Origin: an uncultured Candidatus Saccharibacteria bacterium
GTDB lineage: Bacteria > Patescibacteriota > Minisyncoccia > Phycocordibacterales > PALSA-1337
NCBI GenBank assembly: GCA_964412585.1
Contig: CAYPPJ010000002.1
Location: 9,631-73,630 of the forward strand
Direction of reading: 5' to 3'
DNA length: 64,000 nucleotides
The notes below the pieces were generated by a model. The model was not told the origin of the DNA and did not search any database. It saw only the letters and a list, made by a program, of their open reading frames with translations. Below, piece by piece: positions 14,001-54,180 of the stretch. The first letter of the stretch is position 1. Every line of letters begins with the position of its first letter. Position numbers and translations under genes: made by a program.

Positions 14001-15307
14001 GCTGATCCTCCAATAGTAAACGTCCCTACTCTATACCTGTATGCGCCCGCATCAGTTGCACCAGCACTGGTATCAGCCTGTAACTCAAGCCTCTGCTCTC
14101 CAGAATACAATCCAACCATAACCGCATACGTACCTGATGGTGCATTCACAGGAACCTTGTACGAAACTGCAGTAGAGACAACGCCTGTACTTGGCCAATT
14201 GGTTGCTGATGGAGATGGATAGAAGTCCGCCCCTTTGAGATATGCCCCCGTGGTCATATTCTGGAAATGAACAAACGCCATCCATGTTGTCCCTTTGAGT
14301 GGCGCTGGAATAGGTGAGGTCGCGCTATAGTTTGCCCCTCCAACCCAATTCAGATCGAAACTAAGTGTGGATCCTGGGGACACATTGGTAACTGGCGCTG
14401 TCCAACCACGAACTTTAATCTTTTGATATGGCAACGGTGTGCCGGTGCCTGTAACTACAACAGCCGCTCCGACTGAAGCTGATATTCCGCTCGCGTTTGA
14501 ACACGCAAGTCCATACGTCGTATTTGTAGTCGGCGTAACTATTTGACTACCCGAAGCTGCTTTTGTCCCAGACCAGCCACCCGATGCTGTACATGAGGTG
14601 GGGCTATTGGTAGATGACCAGGTGAGAGTTACGTTTTGCCCTGCTGTAATGGAGGTTGGAGATGCTGAAAATGTGACCACAGGAACTGGAATTGGGTTAG
14701 GATTTGCTCCTGATGCCTTCAAAACAATGGAATCAATATAATATGTAGTACTGTTAGTGGTTTCTTTGAATCGAAGCTCTTGGGTACTTGAAAGATCCCA
14801 CGTGCCACTACCCTTGAGACTGGCCATCGAGATAGTAATCGTCGACCATGATCCCGTTGGGTTGGATGTGACTGGTTGACTATCAGCTGCCGCGGTATAG
14901 CTGTGCAGATATGTCACCAAAGGATCAGGGGTCGCGGTAGTTGCCTTTATGTGGATCTCAATACGATCATATCCACCAAAATTGATAGCTCCGCCACACG
15001 CATCAATGAACCTAAGGATTCCTCCGGTCCACTTTGTGGTCGCGATTGAGATAGAGTTACCTCCGTTTTCGGCAGTTCCGGAAGATATTGAGGCATTTGC
15101 ATCAAAACAGGTAAATGGAGTGGTTGGCCCGAAAAGTACCCTGTCTTGCGTCTCGGCCGTTACCTGTGCCAGATTTGAAACCCAGGCCGTCGGCACAGAT
15201 TTCTGATCAAACGCGTATATTAATGCCACTATGGCTACCAACAGAAGGATTGCTACAAGGACAAGGCTGGCAGCCCGTGAAAATGCACGCGTGAGTAATA
15301 TGCTCAT
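8057..15307 (-). CDS. giant (2416 aa) membrane-anchored surface protein with FN3/Ig-like repeats and C-terminal GH9-like glycoside hydrolase domain
   Basis: Uninterrupted 7.25-kb ORF; N-terminal TM/signal (LVLVAILLLVAIVALIYAF); Thr/Ser/Gly-rich beta-repeat modules (e.g. PPFAPYAVTATAVSSSAINLTWGAAVDDVGVAGYRV... FN3-like); C-terminal ~600 aa carry GH9 hallmarks KGWYDAADYGKY, DEAKWELDWMLSMQ, FITGVGSNPPMRPLHT and GEFTIIDMGYTAAV. Confidence 0.8.
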   Translation of the reverse strand: MSILLTRAFSRAASLVLVAILLLVAIVALIYAFDQKSVPTAWVSNLAQVTAETQDRVLFGPTTPFTCFDANASISSGTAENGGNSISIATTKWTGGILRFIDACGGAINFGGYDRIEIHIKATTATPDPLVTYLHSYTAAADSQPVTSNPTGSWSTITISMASLKGSGTWDLSSTQELRFKETTNSTTYYIDSIVLKASGANPNPIPVPVVTFSASPTSITAGQNVTLTWSSTNSPTSCTASGGWSGTKAASGSQIVTPTTNTTYGLACSNASGISASVGAAVVVTGTGTPLPYQKIKVRGWTAPVTNVSPGSTLSFDLNWVGGANYSATSPIPAPLKGTTWMAFVHFQNMTTGAYLKGADFYPSPSATNWPSTGVVSTAVSYKVPVNAPSGTYAVMVGLYSGEQRLELQADTSAGATDAGAYRYRVGTFTIGGSAQVPTPVINSISLPYCIRGVYFCRQDIQGINFALTGNNLKLTSTTTGAVTSLGINGVNIGNLDSSGTQLVADVPGTIVEGKYLLTDTVSVGGVTKISNAVPFEILSIDNVTKITGVTPSTGPLGQMVTISGTHFTQNNTVQIGPFSFYNISPNAAGNLIVSIPTSTTYTAYIGTPLKVYVENDDYGYSGDNPNATQYTFTIQSGNQTDTTKPVITGIASTTTTTTATITWNTNELADTQVLYGTTNGYGSNTTLDSTKVTGHTATISGLTANAIYHFSVNSKDAAGNLATSSDMTFRTKTLGGDSQPPFAPYAVTATAVSSSAINLTWGAAVDDVGVAGYRVIRDGVVASTTSALAFTDSGLTPATTYSYVIKAFDAANNVSASSSPAVSATTQTTSTGVTATLTSSKTGVMYGEKALITRSSTNASSCTLTDGIDDNSDGWSGATTTSGTLTVSPSISTGYSMTCTGPLGTSPKATIVIRHVDANPNTDITFLGLSAVVQKSPAQITLSWYPDPWAQASANYTIYRSTVIGGPAGGAGTWTQIGSGTGITSYTDTSVTAGTAYEYRVNRANTQHNADAYIYTGIELPQVTTRGKIILMVDSRFATSLATKIDRLKDDLVGDGWVVLDHSVPSTATADSVKSTIKADYTADPTNTKAVFLLGHIPVFKSGNLNPDGHGSRSMPADGFYGDMDGTWTTSTTYIPSDIELEVGRVDMYNMPAFTPLTETDLLSRYLDKDHDFRTKVFNSAIYNNPKAAMMTSDTNRSFQRQFFGSALPLNIESIQFEALYSPEFWNNVEGNNNYLWFSRGSGGGQLTGATGIGYTSDFASSAGYNVVFNSMFASYFEEWDVQNNFLRAPLAAKGYALTNAWSDNPVWVFAHMGLGKEIGFSAKTSQNNNTYYNLPGYAGLPESHRGVHMNLMGDPTLRMQVVAPVTNVARADSTGSTVITWNASPDAGRGYNVYESTNGKAGPFTLITATPVTGTTYTDSSGGAQYTYMVRAVKLEVTPSGSYVNQSQGVFAVGGGAPVNPPPAGDIDVTGGIKIWDGDTIAGVISGGGLVNGGVVGKAAQSNGTDNWLNLPISSLSIPSQYDKFVFYIKSDSPTGITDVTFFLSTNAGSSDPATKSATISLPGPTATPYVQGGSVNNAWHQVVINTSDLVRPGATNLTFRFNDKTVVAVDEFYLVNTQGNAPAYEPISSRVIRLSMGEAYDRASAVTTSNYILKDTVANTVVPIVGVGRESLLTGFIGPLLLPPADAPITSNNLYLVFGADMAAGKQYTLTINNIKTADGVDYPRPEVITFTYDDNKVTNSVKANQVGFVPSAHKYVYIGNYLGDYQEFGNMPIPATPVCKLFSASVTNPQSATPLATVTATDEGNDIRIGQHVIGYDTNSNPIYAPHRYSMSGERVYSCDFASYQTPGNYYVYAPGYGKTYPFTIGSSVYNDVFKIAAKGLYFQRDDIALTSPYADGIAWGLGKSWARAAGSGLDATSFVHSSVLLNPFGKAADVHAVVDTRKGWYDAADYGKYVESGSGALYELLTAYELQPTKYVDSQLTIPESGNGAPDILDEAKWELDWMLSMQNMTDGFVYHRVATSQWGNLVPWNDNSPRWLSEKSTSATLRFAAIMAKASVDMKPYFPTAAATYLARARMAYAAGYPGIGTSVRAGFNGPASGCVDYDAAKNPNPGRPCLIKGNGSMVTFNGSSVPETSTGGGENADSGNSDDERLWAAAELFRATGESAFHTDFKDMAGRVALQTTWNSYGSDSEGRAGFTYARTAGADQTIVNKYLYVGNNSAYTVTNPGPATLLAFANETVANIRNNTYHNGSYTDTPGTGWGAFSESTRWAWALIKASELVKGINPTLAATYLDNAKIALDVQLGGNPLNKTFITGVGSNPPMRPLHTISSTDGKNDPVPGIPIYGIQSELTDGAPHRKVNELTYPSLVSKWDVFPIWRRYVDSSAIVDMGEFTIIDMGYTAAVYGYFSN

Positions 15308-19080: not shown

Positions 19081-19203
19081 AGAGAGTCGGAGCCGAGGAG
19101 GGTGTGCACTGTTCCTGTTATTACAATAAACGATGAGGTATGCGGATAACGTGGTAGCTACTATTTCCATAACAGGAACAGTGCACACCCTCCTCGGCTC
19201 TCT
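19081..19203. repeat. Family-1 palindromic element, copy A: 47-nt conserved core in the loop of a 36-bp inverted repeat
   Basis: Arms agagag(tcgga)gccgaggagggtgtgcactgttcctgttat / ataacaggaacagtgcacaccctcctcggctctct (30 bp perfect plus 6 bp with a 5-nt bulge). Loop 19122..19168 tacaataaacgatgaggtatgcggataacgtggtagctactatttcc matches copies B and C. Confidence 0.85.
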
Positions 19204-29331: not shown

Positions 29332-29745
29332 AACAGAAAATAACAGCCAGTGTCAATTGCTTTTTGGCTGTGGATAGCGCTAGGCTACAAATTAGAGAAC
29401 GTTCGAACTATTCGAACATTCAAGCTAGAGAATCTCTAAGCAATATCTCGATGCATGATGCATCAAGCGAGGTAGAGTCCCGAGGATAATGCCAGTACGC
29501 ATGACCGAAGTTATGCAACCAATATGTCCTTAGCACTATACCCAAACCTGGGAAGGCCATTGCTTAGAGGTTCACGAGCTCGAATAAGGAAAATCACCTG
29601 GTGGTGACTATAATTTCGTCGAGTAAACAACTAAAAAAGCGACTCTCGCGAGTTCGCATTATGATTGTTGTGTTGGTACACTGTACCTATAGGAATCCCC
29701 GAGGGATCTATAGGTTCCCCAATACACTATCACAATCGTATTAAA

Positions 29746-31929: not shown

Positions 31930-32045
31930 GAGTAAAATACGGCACACATGTTTTTGTACATTGCACAGGCCGCTCTCGGCCGAGCATAGGAACTTTTCAG
32001 CAGAAAAGTATCCGCGTACAAAAACATGTGTGCCGTATTTTACTC
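31930..32045. repeat. Family-2 palindromic element, copy 1: 56-nt structured core inside a perfect 30-bp inverted repeat
   Basis: Arms gagtaaaatacggcacacatgtttttgtac / gtacaaaaacatgtgtgccgtattttactc. Loop attgc-[ggccg ctct cggcc]-gagcataggaa-[cttttc agca gaaaag]-tatccgc; core matches 54090..54143. Confidence 0.85.
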
Positions 32046-32048
32046 AAC

Positions 32049-32327
32049 CTACTCCTCCCACCTATCCCCAAAAGGATTTATCTCCTCACCATCAAGACTG
32101 ATTTCTTCTGCTGTATCATCCTCTTCTACAGCACCTACCAATGGATCATCTTCAACTTTTTCATCAATAGCAACAGCCACTTCTGGCTCATCAATCTCTA
32201 TCGGCTTCTTTGCTTTTCCTGGTTTAACATCAAGATCAGTCTCGGGGTGGCCCGATTCTTCAGCGTGTTCTTCAACGACCGGATCTGGTTTTTTTGTTTT
32301 GACTCGCGATTTGGTTGCCGTTGCCAT
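32049..32327 (-). CDS. small acidic protein (92 aa), hypothetical
   Basis: D/E-rich ORF (MATATKSRVKTKKPDP...EEINPFGDRWEE); two overlapping plus-strand Ser-rich ORFs are less plausible. Confidence 0.35.
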   Translation of the reverse strand: MATATKSRVKTKKPDPVVEEHAEESGHPETDLDVKPGKAKKPIEIDEPEVAVAIDEKVEDDPLVGAVEEDDTAEEISLDGEEINPFGDRWEE

Positions 32328-32421
32328 ATACGTTATTGGTTAAACTAATTTCTATGCAGACAGTTGTAACAAAGATAGGCTTTTTGTGCAAGAAATAAGA
32401 GTTGTGGATAACCCTAGCCCA

Positions 32422-32901
32422 TCATCTCAAGCACGCACTATGTGTGAGCGCGACGGCGATTGCGTCATATTCATCGTCAATCACCTTTTTTGCAGGAAGG
32501 GACACAAGTAAATGAACCATTTTAATAACCCGCTCTTTGTCACTCCTCCCGTCACTCGTAACTGCCATCTTTATTTGCATAGGGGTGTACTCATGTATAG
32601 ATATGGCGCGCTTTATTGCTTCAACCAAGATAATACCGCGAACTTCAGCAACTCTCATGGCCGTCTTTTGATTTTTGGTAATAAACAAGGTTTCGATCGC
32701 AAGTGCACTCGGCTTGTATGTTTCAAGAATATTTCCAACTCGCACAGCAACTTGACCAAAACGTGTGTAAATATCGTCCCGCGCTGATGTCTGAAAACAT
32801 TCTGAATGAAGGACTATTTCCCTACCCTTTTTCGCTTTTTCGATGATGGCAATACCAAGGCGGTCATATCCAGGGTCTATACCAATGATTCGTGTGGTCA
32901 T
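32422..32901 (-). CDS. ruvC: crossover junction endodeoxyribonuclease RuvC
   Basis: MTTRIIGIDPGYDRLGIAIIE ... catalytic D/E/D/D pattern, 159 aa. Confidence 0.9.
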   Translation of the reverse strand: MTTRIIGIDPGYDRLGIAIIEKAKKGREIVLHSECFQTSARDDIYTRFGQVAVRVGNILETYKPSALAIETLFITKNQKTAMRVAEVRGIILVEAIKRAISIHEYTPMQIKMAVTSDGRSDKERVIKMVHLLVSLPAKKVIDDEYDAIAVALTHSACLR

Positions 32902-32974
32902 GGGTCAATTATACCTTTATGGATAGTAGTAGTGTACTCATATATAGATGGTAGAATAGGCTATAATAATACCT

Positions 32975-38571: not shown

Positions 38572-38680
38572 GAACAAGGGGCGGAACAGGTACTTTTTCA
38601 GCTACAATAAAAGATGCGGTATGCGAATTGAGTGGTAGCTACTATTTCCGCTTCAAAAGTACCTGTTCCGCCCCTTGTTC
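38572..38680. repeat. Family-1 palindromic element, copy B (in the dnaA-rpmH divergent region)
   Basis: Arms gaacaaggggcggaacaggtactttttcagc / gcttcaaaagtacctgttccgccccttgttc (26 bp perfect plus imperfect tip). Loop 38603..38649 tacaataaaagatgcggtatgcgaattgagtggtagctactatttcc. Confidence 0.85.
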
Positions 38681-39255: not shown

Positions 39256-40008
39256 ATGTATCACACAATTATCTTCCTCCCTCTCTATAACGGGCTTGTC
39301 GCTATTATGAATATTCTGCCGTGGGCTGATATTGGTGTGGCCGTGATCATATTTACAGCCATTGTAAAGCTTGTGCTGTTTCCTCTTTCAAAATCTTCAC
39401 TTTTGACTCAGGTCAAAATGAAGGAGATTGAACCTGAGGCAAACAAGATTCGTGCCCAGTATGCAAGCGACAAGCAAGCCCAGACACTCAAAGTCATGGA
39501 GCTCTACAAGACAAGAGGGGTAAAACCATTTTCAGGTGTCCTACTCCTCCTCATTCAGCTACCCATACTCCTTGCGCTTATCTCAGTTTTTTACAAAATT
39601 ATTCCCTCGATTCACCCAGAGTTCCTCTATAGTTTCATATCAATGCCAGATATAAGCACTAAGATACATTTTCTAGGCATCATTGACCTTGCACAGAAGA
39701 GTTTTATTTTGTCACTTATTACAGCGATTGTTCAATATTTCCAGCTCCACTACTCGATTGCGACTCGCGCCCCAGCAACTGACGCAGTAGTAGATACTTC
39801 GGCGGCTGGTTCAATGGCTATGACAGCCAACTCAATGACAAAGAATATGAAGTTTTTCCTCCCTATTCTTGCGTTTGCATCAACATACTGGCTTATCCCA
39901 GCACAATTTCCTCAAGCCGCCTCGATTATCGCCATCTATTGGACGATCAGTACCCTCTTTACCTTAGGTCAGGAGCTTTATATTAGGAAGAAGTACGTAA
40001 GTAAATAG
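39256..40008 (+). CDS. yidC: membrane protein insertase YidC (short Gram-positive/CPR type)
   Basis: KMKEIEPEANKIRAQYASDKQAQTLKVMELYKTRGVKPFSG...LLIQLPILLAL - YidC/Oxa1 core. Confidence 0.9.
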   Translation: MYHTIIFLPLYNGLVAIMNILPWADIGVAVIIFTAIVKLVLFPLSKSSLLTQVKMKEIEPEANKIRAQYASDKQAQTLKVMELYKTRGVKPFSGVLLLLIQLPILLALISVFYKIIPSIHPEFLYSFISMPDISTKIHFLGIIDLAQKSFILSLITAIVQYFQLHYSIATRAPATDAVVDTSAAGSMAMTANSMTKNMKFFLPILAFASTYWLIPAQFPQAASIIAIYWTISTLFTLGQELYIRKKYVSK

Positions 40009-40114
40009 CACCGCAGGGGAGCACACATCCTCGCTGCTCCAATAAACGATGCGGTATGCAAATTATGTGGTAGCTACTATTTACGCAGCGAGGATGTGTG
40101 CTCCCCTGCGGTGC
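40008..40114. repeat. Family-1 palindromic element, copy C (between yidC stop and end of the T4SS-like operon)
   Basis: Perfect 30-bp arms gcaccgcaggggagcacacatcctcgctgc / gcagcgaggatgtgtgctcccctgcggtgc. Loop 40038..40084 tccaataaacgatgcggtatgcaaattatgtggtagctactatttac. Confidence 0.85.
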
Positions 40115-40122
40115 GGACTCTA

Positions 40123-41442
40123 TTACTTTGCAGTGAGATCAAGAGACCAAAGAGAGAGGTCGTTCTTGTTCATGAATATTAGAAAACGATCCTTTTCATC
40201 AAGGCCAAGATTGAATGCGTCGATGATTCGGTCAGACGTGTCAACAATTGAGGATATTAGATGAACTTCCCCTGTCGTTGCACTAACCTGCCATATTTTA
40301 TCGACGAACGAAACGGTGCCTTTGTACCAATCATCTGGATAGGTCGCCGCGACTGGTTGGGCGGGAACGGCACAATAGATCATGTCTTTATAGAAGTTAC
40401 CCCAGACGCATTTGTCGGCAAGTGTGCGAATGACCGCGTCAGTTCCTTTCTTTTTATCAACATCAAATATACTTGAAACGATATTGTCCGCGCTTCCCGC
40501 CGCAGAAAGGAAGACCTTTTTCGCATCAACACTTACTTTTGTGCTCAAGCCAGGCAATGGACCAAGAATTTTCTTCCATACGCCTGTTTTTGCATTGACG
40601 AAGTAGAGAAAACCACGTTCGTCTGCCGCGCCCTTTGTTGTGAGAGCGATAGTGTTTTCTTCAGGCCACTCAGCATTTACTTGGGTCACTGGGGTGCTAA
40701 AGAGTGGTAGTGGGGCTGAACCGTCAAATTTGAGTATGTATCCCGCGCCAGCACCCTTTTCATTGATTAACACAAATACACGATCTTTTTTAGGGGATAC
40801 CGCAAAAGTCAGAATATTTTCTGGTAGGTTTTTTCCTTTGAGCTCATAAGGGGTCAGTGCAGAATCGGTTACTGATGTAGTTGTTGATACTTTTGGCATA
40901 ACTCGAGCCCGGAGCTCTGCCCAGATTCCTCCAACATTATTTTTTTCGGTTATACCAAAGGCCAAGAAAGACGAGAGGTTTTTGTTCCACACACTTTCAT
41001 ACATTTTAGGAACAACCGTATTCGAAATAGTTTTGATATCAAGAGTATTTCCGCGTGCCTCATAGACATTACCACGTCCCCTATCGATCCAACGGATAGC
41101 TGTTGTGGTGCTCGCAGCTTTTGCATTGACTGGACCTGTCGTACTTGCCCCATATCCCGCTACTGGCGTATTACTCAAAAGACGAAGGGTTGGAATTTTG
41201 AGCTGTGTACCAGAAGCTGTTGAACCGGTGCCATTTGTGCCTACACGAGGAGTACTTGTGCTCGTGCCTGACGATTGTGTTGGTGTACGACCAAATGGGG
41301 TGAAGCCATTTTGTTGTGTGTTTGATGGTTCGCCAAAGTCTGTTGTACCGATTCCCCGCACAAAGAAGTACCAGTATGCGCCACCAGCGATGATGAGTAG
41401 AATAATGAGGCCTATGATGTATTTTAGGGATTTTGAGGTCAT
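40123..41442 (-). CDS. membrane-anchored protein with S/T-rich linker and beta-propeller-like domain (last gene of T4SS-like operon)
   Basis: N-terminal TM IIGLIILLIIAGGAYWYFFV, then TPTQSSGTSTSTP... low complexity, then ~330-aa globular domain. Confidence 0.55.
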   Translation of the reverse strand: MTSKSLKYIIGLIILLIIAGGAYWYFFVRGIGTTDFGEPSNTQQNGFTPFGRTPTQSSGTSTSTPRVGTNGTGSTASGTQLKIPTLRLLSNTPVAGYGASTTGPVNAKAASTTTAIRWIDRGRGNVYEARGNTLDIKTISNTVVPKMYESVWNKNLSSFLAFGITEKNNVGGIWAELRARVMPKVSTTTSVTDSALTPYELKGKNLPENILTFAVSPKKDRVFVLINEKGAGAGYILKFDGSAPLPLFSTPVTQVNAEWPEENTIALTTKGAADERGFLYFVNAKTGVWKKILGPLPGLSTKVSVDAKKVFLSAAGSADNIVSSIFDVDKKKGTDAVIRTLADKCVWGNFYKDMIYCAVPAQPVAATYPDDWYKGTVSFVDKIWQVSATTGEVHLISSIVDTSDRIIDAFNLGLDEKDRFLIFMNKNDLSLWSLDLTAK

Positions 41443-42902
41443 GGTGTTCCGCCGAGGCCCGTTATAAGAGCACTGGTTTGTTTATCAAATAATTGCCTGA
41501 CTGAAGGGTCACTTATTGTTGGCAAAGCTGCAGTTCTCATTCTCTTTACATCAGCAATTGTTGTCTGGGCAGCCTCCTTGTAAAGTGTTAGTTCGCCCGC
41601 TTTCACGCCCGCATTTACAAATTGTGCTGCAGTGAAGCCGGCCGCACCGCCGAGTACACCCCCTGCCGATGTTCCTGCGATGGTGAAAAGGGTTGTGACA
41701 CTTGATTGGAAGGTATCCACCATAGCTTTTACCGATGGACTCTTTGACATACCGTACAGTATAGTGGAGTTTATCTTGGTTATAGCCTCCGCATATTTTT
41801 GATAATCAAGGACTTGTCCCGAAGCGACATCATTTCCAGATTTCTTCAACATTTCACTGTATTTTGTGCTCTCGTCAGCTATTTCTTTAAGGCACGTTGC
41901 TTGATCGTAATTATTTCCATAGTTCCACCACAAAAAACTACTTGATTCAGTGGTTATACCATAGCATTTTTGGATTATTGCGTTCATTATACCAACTCCC
42001 TGTTTAGTGGTGATTGATGCAGTCAGATCTTTTTGCTGGTTATTAATATCGGCAATACGTGCTGCAAGTGCCCGAGAAGCTGGGTCAAGTATAGATGACT
42101 GATCTATAAGTGATTGACATACGTTGGTTGTTCCCGCGGGGACAATTCGATCGTCGATACTATCCATACCGTTTGGATCCGGAACGAATGAATTGACTGA
42201 ATCAATCAATTGTTTACATAAGTCAGCTTTTTGTTGGTCGAGTTCGTCGGATTTTTTCTTTGCCTCAGCAACGGATTTTATAAGATCCATATTATCGCTT
42301 CGGAACTTGCTTGCATCGCGGTTTAGTTGGTCAAATATACCGCTCAATGCCTGAGGTTCATATTTTATATCAAGTGGTTTTACCAACGTCGTTGGTATAT
42401 CAACGAGCCTCGGGTCAACTGTTTTCAGAATAAGATATGAACACAGCACAAGTAATAGGCCGAGCAACGCATTTTGTATTTTTTTAATACCATCAGTTTT
42501 TTGATTATACGCATCGGAGCTCATATACTCGAAACCGCCCCAGACAATCATAAATACCGCCGCAACAGCGCAGAGTGCAATAAGAAGGTTGAATGCATAC
42601 TGTACATAATCTTTAAATTTGACTGAAGTGATTTGTGTCCCTGTTTGGCAATCTACGGCCGGTGTGGTGATTTTTCCGGTAGCATCCTTGACGGCCGGGC
42701 TTGGAACGCATGGCAATGGTTCTAGAAGCGTATAACTAGATTCAGTGTTACAGACGGGGTTGTTTTTTGCATTTGCCGCACTACAATCTGGCCCCGTGGT
42801 TTGTGCCGAAGTGATTGATGTTGAACCAAGTAAAATAACTGCCATTAAGGCTATAAGAGGGATGTTGCAAACTATTTTTCTAAGTATGGAGTATGTATTC
42901 AT
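41439..42902 (-). CDS. secreted/membrane protein with Cys-rich N-terminal region, two central TM helices and C-terminal coiled-coil (T4SS-like operon)
   Basis: Signal peptide, PDCSAANAKNNPVCNTE..., TM pair VQYAFNLLIALCAVAAVFMIVWGGF / IQNALLGLLLVLCSYLIL; 4-nt overlap with downstream gene. Confidence 0.55.
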   Translation of the reverse strand: MNTYSILRKIVCNIPLIALMAVILLGSTSITSAQTTGPDCSAANAKNNPVCNTESSYTLLEPLPCVPSPAVKDATGKITTPAVDCQTGTQITSVKFKDYVQYAFNLLIALCAVAAVFMIVWGGFEYMSSDAYNQKTDGIKKIQNALLGLLLVLCSYLILKTVDPRLVDIPTTLVKPLDIKYEPQALSGIFDQLNRDASKFRSDNMDLIKSVAEAKKKSDELDQQKADLCKQLIDSVNSFVPDPNGMDSIDDRIVPAGTTNVCQSLIDQSSILDPASRALAARIADINNQQKDLTASITTKQGVGIMNAIIQKCYGITTESSSFLWWNYGNNYDQATCLKEIADESTKYSEMLKKSGNDVASGQVLDYQKYAEAITKINSTILYGMSKSPSVKAMVDTFQSSVTTLFTIAGTSAGGVLGGAAGFTAAQFVNAGVKAGELTLYKEAAQTTIADVKRMRTAALPTISDPSVRQLFDKQTSALITGLGGTP

Positions 42903-42908
42903 AGGTAA

Positions 42909-43931
42909 TTAAAAATTCAACCCCTCCCCTTGTGTTGGTGTTCTATTAAATTGCACCGAAAAAGTGGCGTCTGTACCTTGAAGTATTTTCTCAATATTAC
43001 GAATACTCACTTGGACATTTGATGATCCTGTAGAGTCGTCTGGTGCACGTAACACAACTGACTCTTTGTTCGTCAAGCTTGACCTTCCTGAATTGTTAAG
43101 ACCCCACGACCAATCAAGATCACCAGTTCCCACGCGAGGCTTATTGAACCCAAAAGGAACGGCGAGGACACTCGTCTCTTTGTTTGAACCAATGCGCAAA
43201 GTTGAACCTATCGATCTGTTAAAGAGGGTTCCATATAAAGGATCCTCTATATAAAATTGTATCTCAGGACCTCGGGTTATTACTTGAGTATAGGCGCTTG
43301 CGGATGAATCATTATCTTTTGGCCACACAGTTACTGAAATATCATATGGTCGAGGCACTACATCACCCACAAGCACAATAGATTGTTTATTATATCCAGA
43401 CTGGTCTTCAAGGGCTCTCCCGTTCTTTTTCCATTGGTACACTAGTGCAGAAGGACTGTATTCGATACCAGCTGAATTGGCAATGTGAGGTACCGCAATG
43501 ATGGTTACTGAATTTTGATATACAGCTGGAATCTTCCCTTTAAAAAATGGAGGAGTATAGCCATCAGTTTCTAATAGCAGATCGACTGACCCAGAACCAA
43601 TAATGATTGAAGATTTAACAATTACCCCATCAACATTGGTGGCCGTTACTTCAATTGATATTTTCTTTCCTAAAGCAGGAGCCACAACGTCAAACGATGT
43701 CATTCCCGCACCTGACTTCGAAAGCTTTCCATCGACATACCAGGATACTTTGGAAGAATTAATATCTATTGTATAGCTCCGAGCGGTGACGGTGATAGTT
43801 TGTCCCGGAGAAGGGTTGTTACTGGATGGTGATAATTCTAGTCCACCAATGGAAGTTGGCACTTGAGCATGTGCAACAGCCGAAAACATAAAAGCGCACA
43901 GTAGAATTACCCCAAAGAAACGAGATTTCAT
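42909..43931 (-). CDS. secreted Ig-like/beta-repeat protein (T4SS-like operon)
   Basis: Start placed at MKSRFFGVILLCAFMFSAVAHAQ (signal peptide); the longer ORF to 44024 would overlap the upstream gene. Confidence 0.5.
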   Translation of the reverse strand: MKSRFFGVILLCAFMFSAVAHAQVPTSIGGLELSPSSNNPSPGQTITVTARSYTIDINSSKVSWYVDGKLSKSGAGMTSFDVVAPALGKKISIEVTATNVDGVIVKSSIIIGSGSVDLLLETDGYTPPFFKGKIPAVYQNSVTIIAVPHIANSAGIEYSPSALVYQWKKNGRALEDQSGYNKQSIVLVGDVVPRPYDISVTVWPKDNDSSASAYTQVITRGPEIQFYIEDPLYGTLFNRSIGSTLRIGSNKETSVLAVPFGFNKPRVGTGDLDWSWGLNNSGRSSLTNKESVVLRAPDDSTGSSNVQVSIRNIEKILQGTDATFSVQFNRTPTQGEGLNF

Positions 43932-43986
43932 TAGCTTTATTTTACCACGCCCTTTCAATACAGTCTGCAGTAATTTCGGGGATAAT

Positions 43987-44421
43987 TTATTTCGGTAACG
44001 AGCCGTTTGGTGGTCTGAAATCACCCTGGTGAATAGGGTTTTTCGGTGGAGCGTGTCTCATCCCCTCAACGTTCATTTTTGGGCCCATTTTTCCTTTAGT
44101 TAGTACATTGGCTGAAATCCCCGTTTTATCCTCAAGTCGCGTTGTGCCTACTATGATGAGCATTGCGACAAAAATGGTAGGCAATTCCTGCACACCTGGA
44201 ATAAGCTCCGCTATTGTGGAGATAATTTTTGTAACTCCCTGTTTTCCGCTGACAATTCCCATACCCTGTCTCCAAAAGTACACACTCGCAAGGACCCAAA
44301 ATATAGGACCGACAAAGTCGCCGACAAGAGGGATTAAGGTGAATAGGTCAGCAACAAGGGCCGCAACAACCAAAATGGCCCCTGCGGCGTTAGTAATTCG
44401 GTTCTTTTTGGATGTATCCAC
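43987..44421 (-). CDS. small polytopic membrane protein (T4SS-like operon)
   Basis: 3-4 TM helices (ILVVAALVADLFTLIPLVGDFVGPIFWVLASVYFW...). Confidence 0.5.
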   Translation of the reverse strand: MDTSKKNRITNAAGAILVVAALVADLFTLIPLVGDFVGPIFWVLASVYFWRQGMGIVSGKQGVTKIISTIAELIPGVQELPTIFVAMLIIVGTTRLEDKTGISANVLTKGKMGPKMNVEGMRHAPPKNPIHQGDFRPPNGSLPK

Positions 44422-44458
44422 GGTTCAATTATAACAAACTAACCTTTGGATTGTGACA

Positions 44459-46273
44459 CTACCCGGCCTGCTCCAGTTGCCTCTTTGCATCCTTGATAGC
44501 CAACACCTGAGCTGGATTTGTAGTAATAATCTGATCTTCTGTATATGATCCAACCACTTTAATAGCGACGTGTTTGAGCCCTACGAAGAAAATGCCCTCC
44601 CCCACATCAGACTCGAGGAGTAGGTATTTTTCCTCATCCGTGAGGTTGAATGTTTTTTGGATATGATCTATGACTGTTGGCGATTGTTTCAAAAGGATCT
44701 GGATGGATGAGTTTGTCACAATAGGCAATCCATACGGTGAATTCAAGAAGTCATCCACGTCTTGGGTGATGGTAGCAAGACCAAGGAAATATTTACGTCC
44801 GCGCTTTGCCAAACCAAAGAGGAAGGATGCGGTATCTTCGGATTTCATCATCCACCACGCCTCATCAATGACAAGGAGACGGCGCTTGAGATTTTTACGA
44901 ATAGCATTCCATATATAGTGTGTGACGATATACATTGCAACCGGCTTGAGCTCATCTTCCATGTCGCGGAGCGAAAATACCACGAACTTCTTGTTAATAT
45001 CGACATTCGAAGGTCTATTTATGAAGCCGGCCCACGTACCTTTTGTATACTTACTGAGGCGCTGTACGAGTGAGTCACCACCCTCCATGCCTGCGAGGAC
45101 GAGCTCAAAGTCTGAGAGTAATGGCGGTTCTACAGTACGAAAATCTGCCTCAGGCGTGATATCTTTGAGGGCATAGGTCTCACTGATCGCTCGGTCGATG
45201 ATCGCGTCCTCTTCTTGGGTGAGTCCGCCTAACATGATACGGAAGAGGCCGACCAGGTTGATGATGTTTGAACGCAACACATCGGCTGCAGATTCATCTT
45301 CACGAGGTATTGGTAGGTCAAATGGGTTGATATGATGTTCTGAGTTCAAGGAAATATTAAAGTACTTCCCTCCAGTTGCTTCGGCCATATACTCGTATTC
45401 TTTTTCTGGGTCGATAACTATGACATCTGTATCGAACATCAGGGTACGGAGAATTTCGAGCTTGGTTGCGTATGATTTACCAGCGCCGGCCGTTGCGAAG
45501 GTGACAGAGTTGTAATTTTCTAGGGAAAATCGATCAAAGAGCACCAATGAAGAGTTGTGGCGGTTGATACCGTATAGAATGCCTTTGTCTGAGGTGAGGT
45601 CAAATGAGACAAATGGAAAGAGTGACGATAGTGGCGATGAATTGAGCTTCGAGTGTACTGTCAATTGGTCATCTGCAATCGGAATAACTGATTTGAAGCC
45701 TTGTTCTTGCTGGAATAGGGCAGGTTTGACATACACTAGCTTTGATTCGAGGATAGATTTGATCTCGGACTCAAGCTTGTCGAGCTCACCTTCAGAGTCG
45801 GCGAAAAGTGTAATGTAGACACCCACATCAAATAGGTGTTCCTGTGCCTGCATGAGCTGATCACGGAGCTGCTCGAGATCTTGGTATGCAGTATCCAATG
45901 CCGGATCACGCACCAATCCCTTCTCTTCCCTACGCAAAATCTGGCTCTGAACTTCAGCAACCTTCTTTTGGAAATGGCGGAGAATCTTTGCCGTATCAAC
46001 CGGATGGATGAATATTGAGATATTAAAAATCTTATCGAGGTTAATGATCGGTGCAAACCAGCTTTCGTCCAAGAAACGTGGATATGAAATGACAAAAAGC
46101 GTACGGCCTACCTTTTCACCAAGATTGAGGTCTTTTGGGCTTATTTTGAGTGCGGATGGAGAAATGACATCTTTGAGCTCCAACACCCCAGCCTGATAGA
46201 TTTCCTCGGGCAGGATGGAGACGATAGGTGATGAGTCGTCTTTCTTTCCAAATAAATTACCAAAAAATGACAT
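44459..46273 (-). CDS. VirB4/TrbE/CagE-family T4SS ATPase, main (ATPase) part
   Basis: Walker A TFATAGAGKSYATK, Walker B LLVIDEAWWMM, AAA_10/CagE_TrbE_VirB architecture; 604 aa. Confidence 0.85.
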   Translation of the reverse strand: MSFFGNLFGKKDDSSPIVSILPEEIYQAGVLELKDVISPSALKISPKDLNLGEKVGRTLFVISYPRFLDESWFAPIINLDKIFNISIFIHPVDTAKILRHFQKKVAEVQSQILRREEKGLVRDPALDTAYQDLEQLRDQLMQAQEHLFDVGVYITLFADSEGELDKLESEIKSILESKLVYVKPALFQQEQGFKSVIPIADDQLTVHSKLNSSPLSSLFPFVSFDLTSDKGILYGINRHNSSLVLFDRFSLENYNSVTFATAGAGKSYATKLEILRTLMFDTDVIVIDPEKEYEYMAEATGGKYFNISLNSEHHINPFDLPIPREDESAADVLRSNIINLVGLFRIMLGGLTQEEDAIIDRAISETYALKDITPEADFRTVEPPLLSDFELVLAGMEGGDSLVQRLSKYTKGTWAGFINRPSNVDINKKFVVFSLRDMEDELKPVAMYIVTHYIWNAIRKNLKRRLLVIDEAWWMMKSEDTASFLFGLAKRGRKYFLGLATITQDVDDFLNSPYGLPIVTNSSIQILLKQSPTVIDHIQKTFNLTDEEKYLLLESDVGEGIFFVGLKHVAIKVVGSYTEDQIITTNPAQVLAIKDAKRQLEQAG

Positions 46274-46277
46274 ACGT

Positions 46278-46922
46278 TTAGGTTATCTGTATAGGCTTCT
46301 CTGTTTCTCCTGGGTTGAAGAGTTTGTAGAACAATTCTACCACCTCTTCTGTCCCAAGTTCTGCGGCTCGAATACCACAGCGTACCAGCCCCTGTTCGAC
46401 CACAGCGACACGTTGTTCAAGTTGGCTGCGGTATTCCTGAAATTTTGCATCAGCACTTGCCGTCTGTTCTTTTGCCGTGCCCTTGCTGGGAAATATATTC
46501 GAAATCGGATTTTTGCTTGCGGTCATGAGTGGTGGGTCATAGGGTATGACGACAAAGAAGCTCTTTGACATGATGTTGGTGTTTTCAACAAAGGTTTTGA
46601 TGAACTCTATATATTCACGTACCTGGATTTTCATGAGTTCCGTAGCCTGTTCTTTGTAGCGGTCTTCGAGGAGAGCGATGTAGGGTCTAATATCCAGCTT
46701 TTTTGATTGAACGAATATCTGGATAGAAAAATCGAGCGAATTAACGAAGTTCTGGAACTGCATCAGAATAGAACTTTGCTCATCTTGGGATTTCAAGGCA
46801 AAGTTGAGAGATGATACCAAGACGATTGCGCGCATACCGCCATTCTTGAGGATAATGACACCGTCGCGTATCTCCTGTATCGGAATAAAATCTTGGGTTG
46901 TTTTTGATGATACGGCAGCCAT
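46278..46922 (-). CDS. VirB4-family N-terminal domain encoded as a separate ORF
   Basis: IPIQEIRDGVIILKNGGMRAIVLVSSLNFALKSQDEQSSI... matches the first ~200 aa of VirB4/TrbE proteins; stops 4 nt before the ATG of the 604-aa ORF (taa-acgt-atg). Confidence 0.6.
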   Translation of the reverse strand: MAAVSSKTTQDFIPIQEIRDGVIILKNGGMRAIVLVSSLNFALKSQDEQSSILMQFQNFVNSLDFSIQIFVQSKKLDIRPYIALLEDRYKEQATELMKIQVREYIEFIKTFVENTNIMSKSFFVVIPYDPPLMTASKNPISNIFPSKGTAKEQTASADAKFQEYRSQLEQRVAVVEQGLVRCGIRAAELGTEEVVELFYKLFNPGETEKPIQIT

Positions 46923-47356
46923 TATCGTTGATTTTTATTTGAATACATACTTTCTTTGATATCCAGGCTCCAGCTTAGGTCTTTCAATTTGCTGTCAGAA
47001 ATTTTCGGAACCATGATAGAGGCATAGTTTTTAACATCTGTAGCCTCCGCCTCGGTCGTTTGAGGCGTTGTTCTATCCGCCTTTCTCCATATATAGAGCT
47101 TACTGCCGAGATAGTATTTAAATGCAGCTTCGACAACAGTTATAAAAGGTTTGTTATTTATCTTATAGAAAGCGAGTGCGCCTGATATGGCCATAATCAA
47201 GATGATCGGTACAATGGCCAGGGTTACGTTTCCAAGAAATACATAGACTACGAAAGACAGTCCTCCCCCACCAGCCAAGTAGATAAACTGCTTGAGCGTG
47301 AGTGGCCCGAAGATCTTATCCTCGACTTCTATAAATTGGGGAACTTGAAATCGCAT
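46922..47356 (-). CDS. PrgI/VirB3-like small 2-TM T4SS protein
   Basis: MRFQVPQFIEVEDKIFGPLTLKQFIYL + two TM helices; sits directly upstream of VirB4 as in Gram-positive T4SS loci. Confidence 0.55.
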   Translation of the reverse strand: MRFQVPQFIEVEDKIFGPLTLKQFIYLAGGGGLSFVVYVFLGNVTLAIVPIILIMAISGALAFYKINNKPFITVVEAAFKYYLGSKLYIWRKADRTTPQTTEAEATDVKNYASIMVPKISDSKLKDLSWSLDIKESMYSNKNQR

Positions 47357-47395
47357 TGCTCATATTATAGCGTCAAGCGAGGATATGGGAAAGCG

Positions 47396-48088
47396 TTATT
47401 TAATAGGCTCTCGGTATGGATCAGGTCCTCCAGATGATTTTGGTGTAGGAACCGTGATTTTTGGCTTTTGAACCGCAGTCGGCGTTGCCACTACATTTTG
47501 CATAGACTGCCCTGCGGGTTTACTGAGTAGGAGGTCTACAAGTGGCTCTGTATGGCTTTCCTCCTTTTTGGTAGATTTGGCCGCACTAGTCTCACTAAAT
47601 GGACCCGCTTCCTCCTCTCCTACAGGTAAGTTTTGTGGTGGTTGACTGGTGTGAGCTGTGCTTGAGGGTGGATTTTCAAGTCCGGCAAGGATGTTTCCCC
47701 TGTCAGCAGGAGTGACCATCTTGTTTTCTGATTCTGGTTCAGGTTTTTCAATGGTGATGCCACCCATACGCTCTAGATTTTCGCTTGTCTCTGGAGCCGG
47801 GCTGGTTTGTTTTTGCAAATTTGTTTTTAGTACACTAAATACATTTGAGTTAATTTCCACCACAACTTTATCCGCGAGTTCCTGGTCGATAGAGAGTCGG
47901 GTCATTATGTGTCTAGTAAAGTCTGCAGAGGTACTGACACCTTTCAACACATCGCATACTTCAGCATACAGTTCTCCCATTTGGTCGATATTCAACCCTA
48001 ACTTTTTTGAGGTAATTTCCAGGGTATCATAAAACTGCGGTGATGATATGTAGCTTTTTATTTGTTCCAATTGGTTATTTTTGTCCAT
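47396..48088 (-). CDS. hypothetical cytoplasmic protein with P/S/E-rich C-terminus (T4SS-like operon)
   Basis: No TM; ORF in operon context only. Confidence 0.45.
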   Translation of the reverse strand: MDKNNQLEQIKSYISSPQFYDTLEITSKKLGLNIDQMGELYAEVCDVLKGVSTSADFTRHIMTRLSIDQELADKVVVEINSNVFSVLKTNLQKQTSPAPETSENLERMGGITIEKPEPESENKMVTPADRGNILAGLENPPSSTAHTSQPPQNLPVGEEEAGPFSETSAAKSTKKEESHTEPLVDLLLSKPAGQSMQNVVATPTAVQKPKITVPTPKSSGGPDPYREPIK

Positions 48089-48099
48089 AATTGTTCATG

Positions 48100-50139
48100 C
48101 TAATTCCACCAGTGGTGATTTTCAGGCTTATTCATAAATGACAATGCCTTATGAGTTGAACCTCCGCTATGTCTTGTATGGTTTGTGTCCCAAAAGGCAA
48201 TCGCCTCGCCTATCGCTTTCTTTTTAGTATTATCAATACCCTCGTCGTTCATTTCTTTGAGTTGTGAAGGCTTCAAGAAGGCAATAACTGCTGGGCGTAC
48301 CACATCATCAAGACCCATCAGTTCTTTACCACTCATACCGTTTACGATTGCCTCGACAGTTTTCGAGCCACCAACACCTACCGGGTTCTTCTCCACCGCT
48401 TCGTGCAAGGCCTCCTCTCTCGTCTTGGAGAGTGTGCGTTTGTCGTCATCACTCATGTTACCCATCATAAACTTAAGCGTCTCGACATCGTCATTTTTTG
48501 CAGCGGTGACCAGTGCCGCCTTACGTGCGTCAACAATCTCTGCCTGATCATCGGCTGAAATATCATCAGATTTCGCAATCGCCTCAAAGTCTGATTTTTT
48601 GAGATGTTTAACAATATTTGGATCTTTCAAAACTTTTGAACCTAGTGCAAGACGTTCCTTCTCGTTCATCTTACTCATAGCATCTTTGTATTCTTGTGAT
48701 GTAGTACTCTTGGACGACATCAGGCTCTGTAAATGAGAGCCACGGTCAAGTTCGCGTTGCTTCTTTGTTACTTCTTTTTGAGTCTTTGCTATATCTTCGT
48801 ATGACCTGTCACTACCAAATTTAGCTTTCGCAGCTGCTCCTGTTGTTACTGCCCTCAAGTCACGACCAAACAGGCTGTTGCCAAATCGACTTTTGTCCAG
48901 TTTTTTATCCAAATAATTACCCGCATACCCAATCGTTCCTCTACCCGCTATACCCCCCGTCCACCCACCAACTTTTTTCCAAATGGCATCTGCTCCGACC
49001 TTATCTGCCCACTTTGGCATCATTGCCCCCATACTCATTGCACCTAATAGAGGTAGATTGAGCATAACGATCACGAGGACTGCGTTCACGGCAAGAATCA
49101 TGAGATCACTCAAGAAATTCCCACTTGGGCTGAGTGATCCAACGTATCCATCTTTGAATATTGATGTAGAGGTGAGTACTGAGAGCGCAAAATACATCAA
49201 GAGCAAATACACTGGCATGAATATGAGCTGTTCTTTGAGGTATTTTCTCCACAAACCTGCATATTGATCAATTTCTGGCACAACATAGGACGCAAAGAAA
49301 ATAGGTGAAAACGCCAGCAAGAATATCAAAATAACAAAACGAACAATAAAGGCCAGTGACGCCAAGAATAAGCTCAGTGCCGTAGTGACCATGATAATAA
49401 TAGAGGTGATGCCAGTGAGGATAATCTTGAGTGAGGTGCTCACAAAGCCATTTCCAGACTGTATTACTTTCTGGCCATTTGCACTCAAAGTGCCATCAGG
49501 GTTGTATAAACGGGTCACACCAAGAGATTGCATGAATATGGTCGAAATGCCCCCGTCGGCATTGCTTGTGTTTATAAATTTCTTCATATCCAACGATCCG
49601 TCCAGTGTTTGTTGAGGTGCGATTGCGCTATACAATTGCAAGGAGACGATATTGGACACATCGATTGCCAATCCAGTCAGGAAAAAACTGAAGTTGATGA
49701 GAATGCCTGCAACGACAATATTCTTGATGCGATCGCCAAACTTTGGGCTCTCAAATCCGGTGATGAGCTGTATCGCAGAGTATAAGAGTCCGAAAATAAT
49801 GAACATACCTGAGATATCTCTGATCGCCTTCCATACGGTATAAATAGCATCAGTTGATGCTACGAACTCCTTGATATGCATTGTCAGATTGATCGAGAAG
49901 TTCATGAGCGAACCAGCCAGATAGACGAGCCAGCTTGCCATGGTCTGGAAAGAGTAGAAGAGGTTAGCCAAACTATCGGCAATAAGTGTTGTCAGATTGA
50001 AACTGAACATATTTCCCTCTGCATGGGCGATCGGAGTCAGTGCGATTGTTACGGCCAACACACATACAACGACAAACCCAGCACGTGTGAAGTGTCGAGA
50101 GGTTAAAATATGTATTGATCTAATAATGCGTGACAACAT
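48100..50139 (-). CDS. VirB6/TrbL-like polytopic membrane protein with C-terminal coiled-coil/hydrophilic domain
   Basis: Signal/TM at N-terminus, ~7 further TM helices over the first 400 aa, then 280-aa charged domain; size and topology match VirB6/TrbL/PrgH-type channel proteins. Confidence 0.6.
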   Translation of the reverse strand: MLSRIIRSIHILTSRHFTRAGFVVVCVLAVTIALTPIAHAEGNMFSFNLTTLIADSLANLFYSFQTMASWLVYLAGSLMNFSINLTMHIKEFVASTDAIYTVWKAIRDISGMFIIFGLLYSAIQLITGFESPKFGDRIKNIVVAGILINFSFFLTGLAIDVSNIVSLQLYSAIAPQQTLDGSLDMKKFINTSNADGGISTIFMQSLGVTRLYNPDGTLSANGQKVIQSGNGFVSTSLKIILTGITSIIIMVTTALSLFLASLAFIVRFVILIFLLAFSPIFFASYVVPEIDQYAGLWRKYLKEQLIFMPVYLLLMYFALSVLTSTSIFKDGYVGSLSPSGNFLSDLMILAVNAVLVIVMLNLPLLGAMSMGAMMPKWADKVGADAIWKKVGGWTGGIAGRGTIGYAGNYLDKKLDKSRFGNSLFGRDLRAVTTGAAAKAKFGSDRSYEDIAKTQKEVTKKQRELDRGSHLQSLMSSKSTTSQEYKDAMSKMNEKERLALGSKVLKDPNIVKHLKKSDFEAIAKSDDISADDQAEIVDARKAALVTAAKNDDVETLKFMMGNMSDDDKRTLSKTREEALHEAVEKNPVGVGGSKTVEAIVNGMSGKELMGLDDVVRPAVIAFLKPSQLKEMNDEGIDNTKKKAIGEAIAFWDTNHTRHSGGSTHKALSFMNKPENHHWWN

Positions 50140-50145
50140 GTGTTT

Positions 50146-51951: not shown

Positions 51952-51952
51952 A

Positions 51953-54036: not shown

Positions 54037-54065
54037 CGTGGTGTGTGATTCCTAGCTTAGCACAA

Positions 54066-54167
54066 GTGAGTTGAGTATGGGTGAAGATACATTGCGGAGC
54101 GCGACGGCGCGAGCATAGCAATTTTTCAGCAGAAAAATATGCGCGTATCTGAACCCATGCTCGACGA
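54066..54167. repeat. Family-2 palindromic element, copy 2 (between pcrA end and rsmA start)
   Basis: Imperfect 18-24-bp arms gagtatgggtgaagatac / gtatctgaacccatgctc around core attgcggagcgcgacggcgcgagcatagcaatttttcagcagaaaaatatgcgc. Confidence 0.8.
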
Positions 54168-54180
54168 ACGATGTGCGTCC

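Follow-up and report, generated by a model that had tools for sequence, protein, structure and literature searches.

A low-copy intergenic hairpin element of Patescibacteria with a conserved, covarying three-way-junction core, tentatively read as a structured RNA

Introduction

Few noncoding RNAs or repeat elements have, to our knowledge and in the literature searched, been described in Patescibacteria, whose tiny genomes make it likely that retained noncoding DNA matters. In the 64,000-nucleotide stretch of DNA analyzed here (the window), which belongs to a candidate-phyla-radiation (CPR) genome, two intergenic palindromes, together called Family 2, carry similar cores between long arms. An earlier note on this DNA regarded them as a functional RNA structure. 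The locus raises the question of what kind of element this is, how it came to lie where it does, and whether it acts as RNA or as DNA.

Results

Two hairpins with a common core and unrelated arms

The 34-nt Family 2 core pattern, GAGCATAGNAANTTTTCAGCAGAAAANTATNCGC, matches the window exactly twice, at 31982-32015 and 54111-54144, both on the + strand, with 0 matches expected in the shuffled window. The core of both copies (54 to 56 nt) is laid out as ATTGC, a GC hairpin, GAGCATAG, a 10-bp hairpin with a bulged A, and TATNCGC (Table 1). Neither copy has arms that resemble those of the other or any sequence elsewhere in the window or in the related loci. The earlier note had described just this combination of a conserved, internally paired core and mutually unrelated, copy-specific arms, and it was also right about the perfect 30-bp inverted repeat that encloses the core of copy 1. 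The arms of copy 2 are imperfect, as it had said, with pairing in the order 6 bp, a tandem G.A/A.G mismatch, 13 bp including two U.G pairs, an internal loop, and GCACA/TGTGC. The core of copy 2 is present, one base away from where it had been placed.

Within the core, the inner GC hairpin does covary between the copies (GGCCG-CTCT-CGGCC versus GCGC-GACG-GCGC), two of the four shared pairs differing on both sides. The second hairpin is found in both copies and is longer than first described, with 10 bp and the bulged A; it adds two more compensatory differences, G-C/C-G and C-G/U-A.

The gene contexts given in the earlier note, after yebC for copy 1 and between pcrA and rsmA for copy 2, are correct. 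Copy 1 fills the gap at which yebC (+) and, on the opposite strand, a 92-aa ORF (orf92, −) converge 3' end to 3' end. Copy 2 lies between the pcrA stop codon and the rsmA start codon, both on the − strand, so that the strand reading ATTGC is antisense there. The two copies are not a recent segmental duplication with identical flanks, a possibility that the note had already doubted. Identical element sequences recur in 9 and 10 independent metagenome assemblies, and this unchanged recurrence shows that they are not an assembly artifact.

Table 1. Positions of the parts of the two Family 2 copies in the window
Feature	Position	Strand	Remarks
Copy 1, whole element	31930-32045		Core on + strand
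Copy 1, 5' arm of P1	31930..31959	+	30 nt, copy-specific; fully complementary to 32016-32045
Copy 1, core (three-way junction)	31960..32015	+	56 nt; MFE and centroid folds concur, z = −14
Copy 1, inner parts of core	31962-64 / 31984-86; 31968-81		J = AT; P2 = TGC (31962-64) / GCA (31984-86) around GGCCG-CTCT-CGGCC (31968-81); then TA
Copy 1, P3	31989-32013	+	10 bp; loop AGCA 31999-32002; bulged A 32010; then GC
Copy 1, 3' arm of P1	32016..32045	+	Ends 3 nt before stop codon of convergent 92-aa ORF
Copy 2, whole element	54060-54176		Core on + strand
Copy 2, tail	54037..54059	+	23 nt between rsmA start codon and hairpin; belongs to inserted block
Copy 2, 5' arm of P1	54060..54090	+	Imperfect; tandem G.A 54083-84; two U.G pairs
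Copy 2, core	54091..54144	+	54 nt; AT; P2 = TGC (54093-95) / GCA (54113-15) around GCGC-GACG-GCGC (54099-110); TA
Copy 2, P3	54118-54142	+	Loop AGCA 54128-31; bulged A 54139; then GC
Copy 2, 3' arm of P1	54145..54176	+	Tandem G.A 54151-52; ends 4 nt before opposite-strand pcrA stop codon

Predicted fold, homologs, and covariation

Copies outside the window, for which the earlier note had proposed a search, do exist. Three more sequences, at loci L043, L031, and L022, bring the homolog set to five distinct sequences with copies 1 and 2. MFE and centroid folding alike predict one and the same three-way junction for the five, with z scores against shuffles of −6.8 to −14. From the outside in, it consists of helix P1 formed by the arms, two unpaired nucleotides, helix P2, UA, helix P3, GC, and the return strand of P1. 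P2 is made of UGC/GCA, a 3x2 internal loop, and a 4- to 5-bp GC hairpin with a tetraloop, and P3 of 10 bp with the bulged A and a 4-nt loop. The nucleotides at the junction, AC-AUUGC, GA-GCAUAG, and UAUNCGC-GU, are almost invariant. P1 is of similar length in all independent copies (27 to 33 nt per arm), each hairpin begins with G and ends with C, and a single element amounts to a hairpin of about 115 to 125 nt.

The homolog in a different gene context, L022, was found by a scan of genome and metagenome contigs with a pattern that had 7 N after AGCA, one more than the window copies have. It is a true homolog in which P3 is one nucleotide longer. In its genome, that of a different Candidatus Paceibacterota, it follows rpsF-ssb-rpsR and a 95-aa gene and faces efp in convergent orientation. 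Over the first 32 nucleotides from the 5' end, its core is identical to that of copy 2. P3 is wholly different yet paired, with TTTTTC/GAAAAA replaced by TCCGCC-AGCA-GG(C)CGGA, and the arms are new, with 23 bp including one U.G pair, then a tandem G.A, and then 2 bp. The proteins encoded beside the window copies assign this DNA to Patescibacteria, their close homologs carrying the names Candidatus Taylorbacteria, Paceibacterota, and Parcubacteria. Two other matches were discarded as due to chance: L021, from the scan of genome and metagenome contigs, lies in a coding region, and the single viral-contig match to the core pattern with 6 N lies within an ORF. A covariance model (R1) retrieved no further or more divergent copies from 237 kb of fetched loci at E ≤ 10, and a BLAST search of plasmids and phages with copy 2 gave no match.

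The covariation anticipated by the earlier note is strongly supported by the homolog alignment. In the five-sequence alignment (A4, 25 pairs, tested against 500 shuffles), 96.8% of the cells form standard pairs, and 12 of the 25 pairs have changes on both sides, as for example in P3 of L022. The covariation score was matched by 0 of the 500 shuffles, and in control structures with partners slid by 1 to 3 columns merely 23 to 56% of the cells pair. The three pairs at the base of P2 (UGC/GCA) are invariant across the five sequences and, because they never vary, are a prediction only.

A frozen core between drifting arms

Two of the homologs occupy the same sites as the window copies. L043 is the ortholog of copy 1 (YebC 94% identical), and L031 (GCA_023269245.1) is the ortholog of copy 2 at the same site (RsmA 83% identical). 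The core of copy 1 differs from that of L043 in the two hairpin loops only, CTCTC being CTGA in P2 and AGCA being ACCA in P3, while 57% of the 4-fold sites of yebC, which serve as neutral yardstick, differ. The AGCA loop that the earlier note called conserved is thus common to both window copies and is not retained in L043. Similarly, the cores of copy 2 and L031 are identical at 51 of 54 positions, with 58% and 66% of the 4-fold sites differing in rsmA and pcrA, respectively. On the evidence of these alignments, the core is under strong purifying selection at fixed orthologous sites, and its near constancy there is unlike that of a decaying selfish insertion. The cores of copies 1 and 2 differ at about one-quarter of their positions, although each has an almost exact counterpart in its own ortholog, and therefore represent old subfamilies that have not homogenized each other.

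The arms follow a different course. Between copy 1 and L043, 11 of the 30 arm positions have changed (7 transitions and 4 transversions), and every change is exactly mirrored in the opposite arm, so that in both genomes all 30 pairs are Watson-Crick, with zero G.U. With Jukes-Cantor correction, this divergence amounts to roughly one-half of the neutral rate. Copy 2 and L031 agree at 24 of 31 (5') and 24 of 33 (3') arm positions; at least three A-U pairs have become G-C by double change, several differences are one-sided and give G.U, and the G.A/A.G mismatch is kept. The 23-nt tail of copy 2 is identical to that of L031 at 19 of 23 positions. The arms thus evolve nearly neutrally but in mirrored fashion. 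Since they drift fast while the core is frozen, the unrelated arms of different copies need only age as explanation.

Such arm change is fast for compensatory evolution by selection alone, which suggests that mismatches are resolved quickly by templated arm-to-arm correction. Template switching at quasi-palindromes during replication is an established mutational mechanism. Mirrored changes without G.U also fit the templated correction of a DNA palindrome, and the covariation of the arms is therefore weak evidence for RNA.

Insertion at filled and empty sites

The pcrA-rsmA site is empty in L033, L035, L036, and L037 (RsmA 73 to 81% identical), where the two genes abut or overlap. The empty junctions read TAATG, TGAttATG, or TAAttcacaaATG; they contain nothing arm-like and lack the 23-nt tail. 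Comparison with these relatives therefore identifies the element, arms included, as an insertion. About 140 nt, comprising hairpin, core, and tail, were inserted exactly between the stop codon of pcrA and the start codon of rsmA, and comparison of the filled sites (window and L031) with the four empty ones shows no target-site duplication. Where relatives have the overlapping TAATG, the insertion has split pcrA from rsmA and given rsmA a new upstream region, the 23-nt tail that is largely kept in L031.

Copy 1 is likewise missing from the yebC loci of L024, L027, and L030 (YebC 86 to 90% identical), in which the order is yebC-ruvC-orf89-PBP, all on one strand. Relative to these three loci, the ruvC-orf92 segment of the window (32049-32901) is inverted, an inversion also present in L043. 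Copy 1 lies at one junction of the inverted segment, and the other junction (32902-32974) is without an element. In L024, the yebC-ruvC spacer (10540-10630) contains tandem copies of a short tttactgattac-like unit that is absent from the window.

Three other accounts of the arrangement were rejected. An invertible segment is contradicted by the orientation of the core, which is constant in 19 strain-level assemblies and in the orthologs. The arms are neither an inverted duplication of the local flank nor a prior palindrome, as the empty sites contain neither arm. Nor do they appear to be captured foreign spacers: an arm of copy 1 and an arm of Family 1 (described below) had no exact match in viral contigs and no second match in the window or its relatives.

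Other features of the window and its relatives

Three further hairpins of the window, designated Family 1, are located at 19090-19200, 38572-38680, and 40008-40114, all on the + strand, and have perfect, copy-specific arms of 26 to 32 bp. Their loop of about 45 nt is conserved (…CAATAAACGATG.GGTATGC..AT...GTGGTAGCTACTATTT…), with no stable predicted fold and no Rfam match. The copy at 40008 begins within the yidC stop codon and another lies in the dnaA-rpmH spacer; in L024 and L027, Family 1 is missing from both orthologous sites, dnaA-rpmH and yidC-3'. A long hairpin of another kind is found in L033 (12517-12631), directly after a TraG-like gene and followed by a TATAAT-like motif, with arms of 48 nt that are 92% complementary and an unrelated loop. 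L033 carries this hairpin yet lacks Family 2 at pcrA-rsmA. Long, nearly perfect intergenic hairpins may be general in these genomes.

Upstream of ruvB, a 414-nt noncoding gap holds a block of about 140 nt (window 29421-29581, +) that is nearly invariant in four genomes (the window, L024:5688-5848, L027:8711-8870, and L030:7241-7401). The block is closed by a stem, TCTCTAAGCAA/TTGCTTAGAG, and contains two covarying inner hairpins, with changes on both sides in 10 of 53 predicted pairs, and no Rfam match at E ≤ 1. Its appearance is that of a structured RNA that is not annotated.

The gene order dnaN-dnaA / rpmH-rnpA-yidC at about 35.8 to 40.0 kb and the minimum of the cumulative GC skew at 36 to 40 kb suggest that the replication origin lies inside the window, in which DnaA boxes are not enriched. 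The region 40123-52831 (−) contains mostly unannotated genes with two Pfam matches, a T4SS-pilin-like protein and a TraG P-loop; further matches, to PrgI and TraC-like proteins, come from the syntenic blocks in L033 and L037, and a weak one to TrbL from L033 alone. This region is probably a type IV secretion-like cluster adjoining the origin region. At 8057-15307 (−), the window encodes a 2,416-aa ORF with GH9 cellulase, fibronectin III, and CelD_N domains, very large for a secreted-type protein in a small genome.

The folding strand and the choice between RNA and single-stranded DNA

Several features of the fold distinguish the two strands. Five G.U pairs form when the strand reading ATTGC is folded, whereas its complement has one or two. 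Moreover, 5'-GA/5'-GA tandem mismatches have arisen twice independently, in the copy 2 lineage and in L022, and would be U.C/C.U on the other strand. The ATTGC strand also folds better in three of four comparisons, with −50.2 versus −34.5 kcal/mol for copy 2, −62.3 versus −53.4 for L022, and −63.8 versus −59.0 for L031. From these features we infer that the ATTGC strand is the one that folds.

At all three loci, the strand that is sure to be transcribed is the opposite one, as part of the 3' UTRs of orf92 (copy 1) and efp (L022) and of the pcrA-rsmA spacer (copy 2). The pcrA-rsmA transcript runs opposite to the ATTGC strand at copy 2, so that RNA from that strand needs an unseen promoter there, and neither a sigma-70-like promoter consensus nor an intrinsic terminator consensus is present beside copy 1 or copy 2. 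The structure is equally stable with DNA parameters. The functional-RNA reading of the earlier note is supported as far as a folded, covarying core under selection is concerned and does not establish RNA as the folded molecule; the same pairs fold as single-stranded DNA.

All five copies of Families 1 and 2 are on the + strand, on either side of dnaN-dnaA / rpmH-rnpA-yidC, and hence follow no obvious replication-strand rule. A Pfam scan of most window ORFs of at least 150 aa and two shorter ones gave no match among these ORFs to transposase, integrase, HUH, reverse transcriptase, RNase III, or Nop-domain proteins. As for a trans-acting seed, the junction complement CTATGCTC is not enriched (2 non-self matches versus 1.5 expected).

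Comparison with known families and mobile elements

No known RNA family matches Family 2, which the earlier note had proposed to compare with Rfam. At the gathering threshold, Rfam 15, which includes hammerhead, twister, twister-sister, pistol, hatchet, 6S, Y RNA, and riboswitches, finds 5 tRNAs only in the whole window. In local scans at E ≤ 10, copy 1 has generic long-hairpin matches (miRNA precursor and RNA-OUT) far below threshold, and copy 2 has nothing meaningful. Nothing matching Family 2 was found in the literature searched on hairpin repeats and motifs of CPR bacteria. The best reading is that Family 2 is a new structured element outside the known RNA families.

REP/BIME sequences are intergenic, often just past stop codons, dispersed, and variable among lineages, and they form hairpins in transcripts and in single-stranded DNA; BIME-1 ("RIP") of enterobacteria carries an IHF site and has inverted arms around a central conserved motif. 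Family 2 is also intergenic, dispersed, and hairpin forming, with arms around a conserved center. However, the arms are the conserved part of REP sequences, common to hundreds of copies, whereas those of Family 2 are unique to each copy, its conserved part is a folded three-way junction, and it has only 2 copies in 64 kb. Y1_Tnp, the mark of a RAYT, has no match among the Pfam-scanned window ORFs. Correia (NEMIS) and ERIC-type elements are small noncoding insertions that are cotranscribed and form long hairpins in mRNAs cut by RNases. The likeness lies in long inverted-repeat stems that would be plausible RNase III substrates and in filled and empty sites among relatives; the difference is that Correia and ERIC-type elements carry target-site duplications and terminal inverted repeats that are conserved, and Family 2 has neither. 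For the same reasons, namely no terminal inverted repeats common to the copies and no target-site duplication at pcrA-rsmA, Family 2 does not qualify as a MITE.

Viewed as an RNA, Family 2 has helices backed by compensatory changes, as structured RNAs do, and the same general architecture as hammerhead and twister ribozymes. Its junction sequences differ from every ribozyme core known to us, and its closing helix, some 30 bp long and often perfect, is not usual among orphan motifs and ribozymes. With orphan structured RNA motifs and small self-cleaving ribozymes (e.g., PMC5737381) it has in common a small multihelix junction with invariant junction nucleotides and freely covarying helices, as well as few, scattered copies tied to no gene.

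The hairpin elements of sponge and fungal mitochondria are noncoding and invade short intergenic regions of compact genomes (PMC2800124). Like Family 2, they have no recognizable transposase and are patchy among close relatives; unlike it, they are organellar and fall into families whose members are alike over the entire hairpin, and a conserved multihelix core with copy-specific stems has not been reported for them (PMC2800124). TIGR arrays, from CPR bacteria and phages, consist of tandem units beside a Nop-domain Tas gene, with loops that contain box C/D motifs and variable spacers (PMC12045711). They share with Family 2 the host group and palindromic arms that flank a loop (PMC12045711), but Family 2 is solitary, its loop is conserved, and its core has no RUGAUGA/CUGA pair; the Pfam-scanned window ORFs include no Nop-domain match that would indicate TIGR-Tas.

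Integron attC sites have RYYYAAC ... GTTRRRY boxes, as against arm ends of GAGTAAA..., GCACAAG..., and GCGAGGG... in Family 2. The center of an attC site is variable whereas that of Family 2 is conserved, and Family 2 copies are solitary between housekeeping genes, without cassette arrays. Finally, the hairpins do not have the makings of an intrinsic terminator, as none was called for the whole hairpin and neither 3' arm is followed by a T-run.

Discussion

These observations are best explained if Family 2 is a structured element, present in few copies in Paceibacterota-type Patescibacteria, that arrives by insertion and is then kept by selection. As to how it acts, we lean, at somewhat less than even confidence, toward an RNA read from the ATTGC strand that combines a sequence-free protective or processing stem with a specific junction core. 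On the RNA reading, ATTGC-strand RNA would be made within, or antisense to, neighboring transcripts. P1 would need only to be double-stranded, as a nuclease-resistant or RNase III-type processing stem of free sequence, and the junction core would serve as a sequence-specific platform for a conserved partner, be it a protein, a ligand, or a tertiary fold. The perfect arms could be maintained at the DNA level through templated quasi-palindrome correction. Several points count against an RNA, besides the transcription of the opposite strand: the Watson-Crick pairing of all 30 arm positions in copy 1 and L043, without G.U despite 11 changes (4 of them transversions), better fits a constraint on DNA or on both strands; the strand evidence consists of few events in five distinct sequences; and promoter and terminator signals are absent beside both copies.

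That absence, together with a structure that folds as DNA, would suit an element working as single-stranded DNA, namely, a mobile or recombination hairpin in which the folded core would be the target of a trans-acting recombinase or HUH nuclease whose gene lies elsewhere and the arms would be a DNA-level property. Such an element might be likened to REP/RAYT, IS200/IS605 ends, attC sites, or the mitochondrial hairpin elements. We consider it unlikely, though a serious contender. Repeated lineage-specific insertions into tight intergenic spaces, including one between genes that overlap in relatives, speak for it, as does the presence in one genome of two unrelated core families with the same layout, arms of about 30 bp, and a 5'-G...C-3' outer pair. 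Arms that stay perfect palindromes while diverging at roughly half the neutral rate, and the location of copy 1 at a junction of the ruvC-orf92 inversion, also agree with it. However, none of the Pfam-scanned window ORFs has a transposase, integrase, HUH, or reverse transcriptase domain, the filled and empty pcrA-rsmA sites reveal no target-site duplication, and the five + strand copies on both sides of dnaA/rpmH obey no replication-strand rule. Arms that differ between copies are unexpected if hairpin and core transpose as a unit, just as a core kept at orthologous sites over saturating divergence is unexpected for a nonautonomous selfish element. The G.U pairs, tandem G.A mismatches, and bulged A are typical of RNA, and we infer RNA in preference to single-stranded DNA.

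Selfish DNA, a generic terminator-like hairpin, and a small ORF are all much less likely than either RNA or single-stranded DNA. Dispersed copies and insertion polymorphism could mean a selfish hairpin repeat without host function, conserved by gene conversion among its copies, and palindromes are prone to templated correction. The chance of this is slim, given that the window cores differ at about one-quarter of their positions with each close to its own ortholog, that 54 to 56 nt is short for recombination between loci, that copy 2 shows conservation clearly beyond the neutral level in its tail and arms as well, and that small patescibacterial genomes would be expected to shed useless DNA. 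Slightly less probable again is a generic intergenic hairpin (a terminator without U tract, an insulator, or a block to 3' exonucleases) with loops alike by descent only and no specific role. The positions 3 to 5 nt from the stop codons of orf92, pcrA, and efp, the PNPase encoded in the window, and other long hairpins with unrelated loops after genes in relatives, such as that of L033, are as it would predict. Against it, the loop and not the stem is the most conserved part, the internal helices covary, junction nucleotides are identical in distantly related genomes, and these genomes do have canonical T-tract terminators, including one immediately upstream of the element in L022. A small peptide from the opposite strand has next to no likelihood: CTATGCTC supplies the ATG of 18- to 19-codon ORFs (MLAPSRSAM...) in copy 2, L031, and L022, all three ending in TAA at the outer end of the arm, but copy 1 and L043 differ by a 1-nt indel in the P2 loop that shifts the frame and yields unrelated peptides, and the reading was rejected on that ground. 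Furthermore, the substitutions track base pairing and not codon position, no Shine-Dalgarno-like sequence is present, and the ATG lies inside the junction.

Returning to the RNA reading, a more far-reaching form of it, speculative and rather improbable, would see a self-contained and hitherto unrecognized kind of "hairpin cassette" of CPR bacteria, represented by Family 2 and in parallel by Family 1. Its core would be a catalytic or ligand- or protein-binding RNA, a new ribozyme or RNP class restricted to Patescibacteria, spreading among intergenic sites as core plus stem, with a sequence-free stem of about 30 bp kept a perfect palindrome by templated correction.

A covarying fold with a nearly frozen core, across lineages whose neutral sites are saturated, is the mark of real function. 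The arms constitute a natural experiment, in which long inverted repeats stay complementary while drifting at about half the neutral rate. Should the element be merely a stabilizing hairpin, it would be a modest addition to bacterial intergenic repeats. If the core is instead a new ribozyme, aptamer, protein-binding RNA, or site for a single-stranded-DNA recombinase, Family 2 would be a new component of the biology of CPR bacteria.
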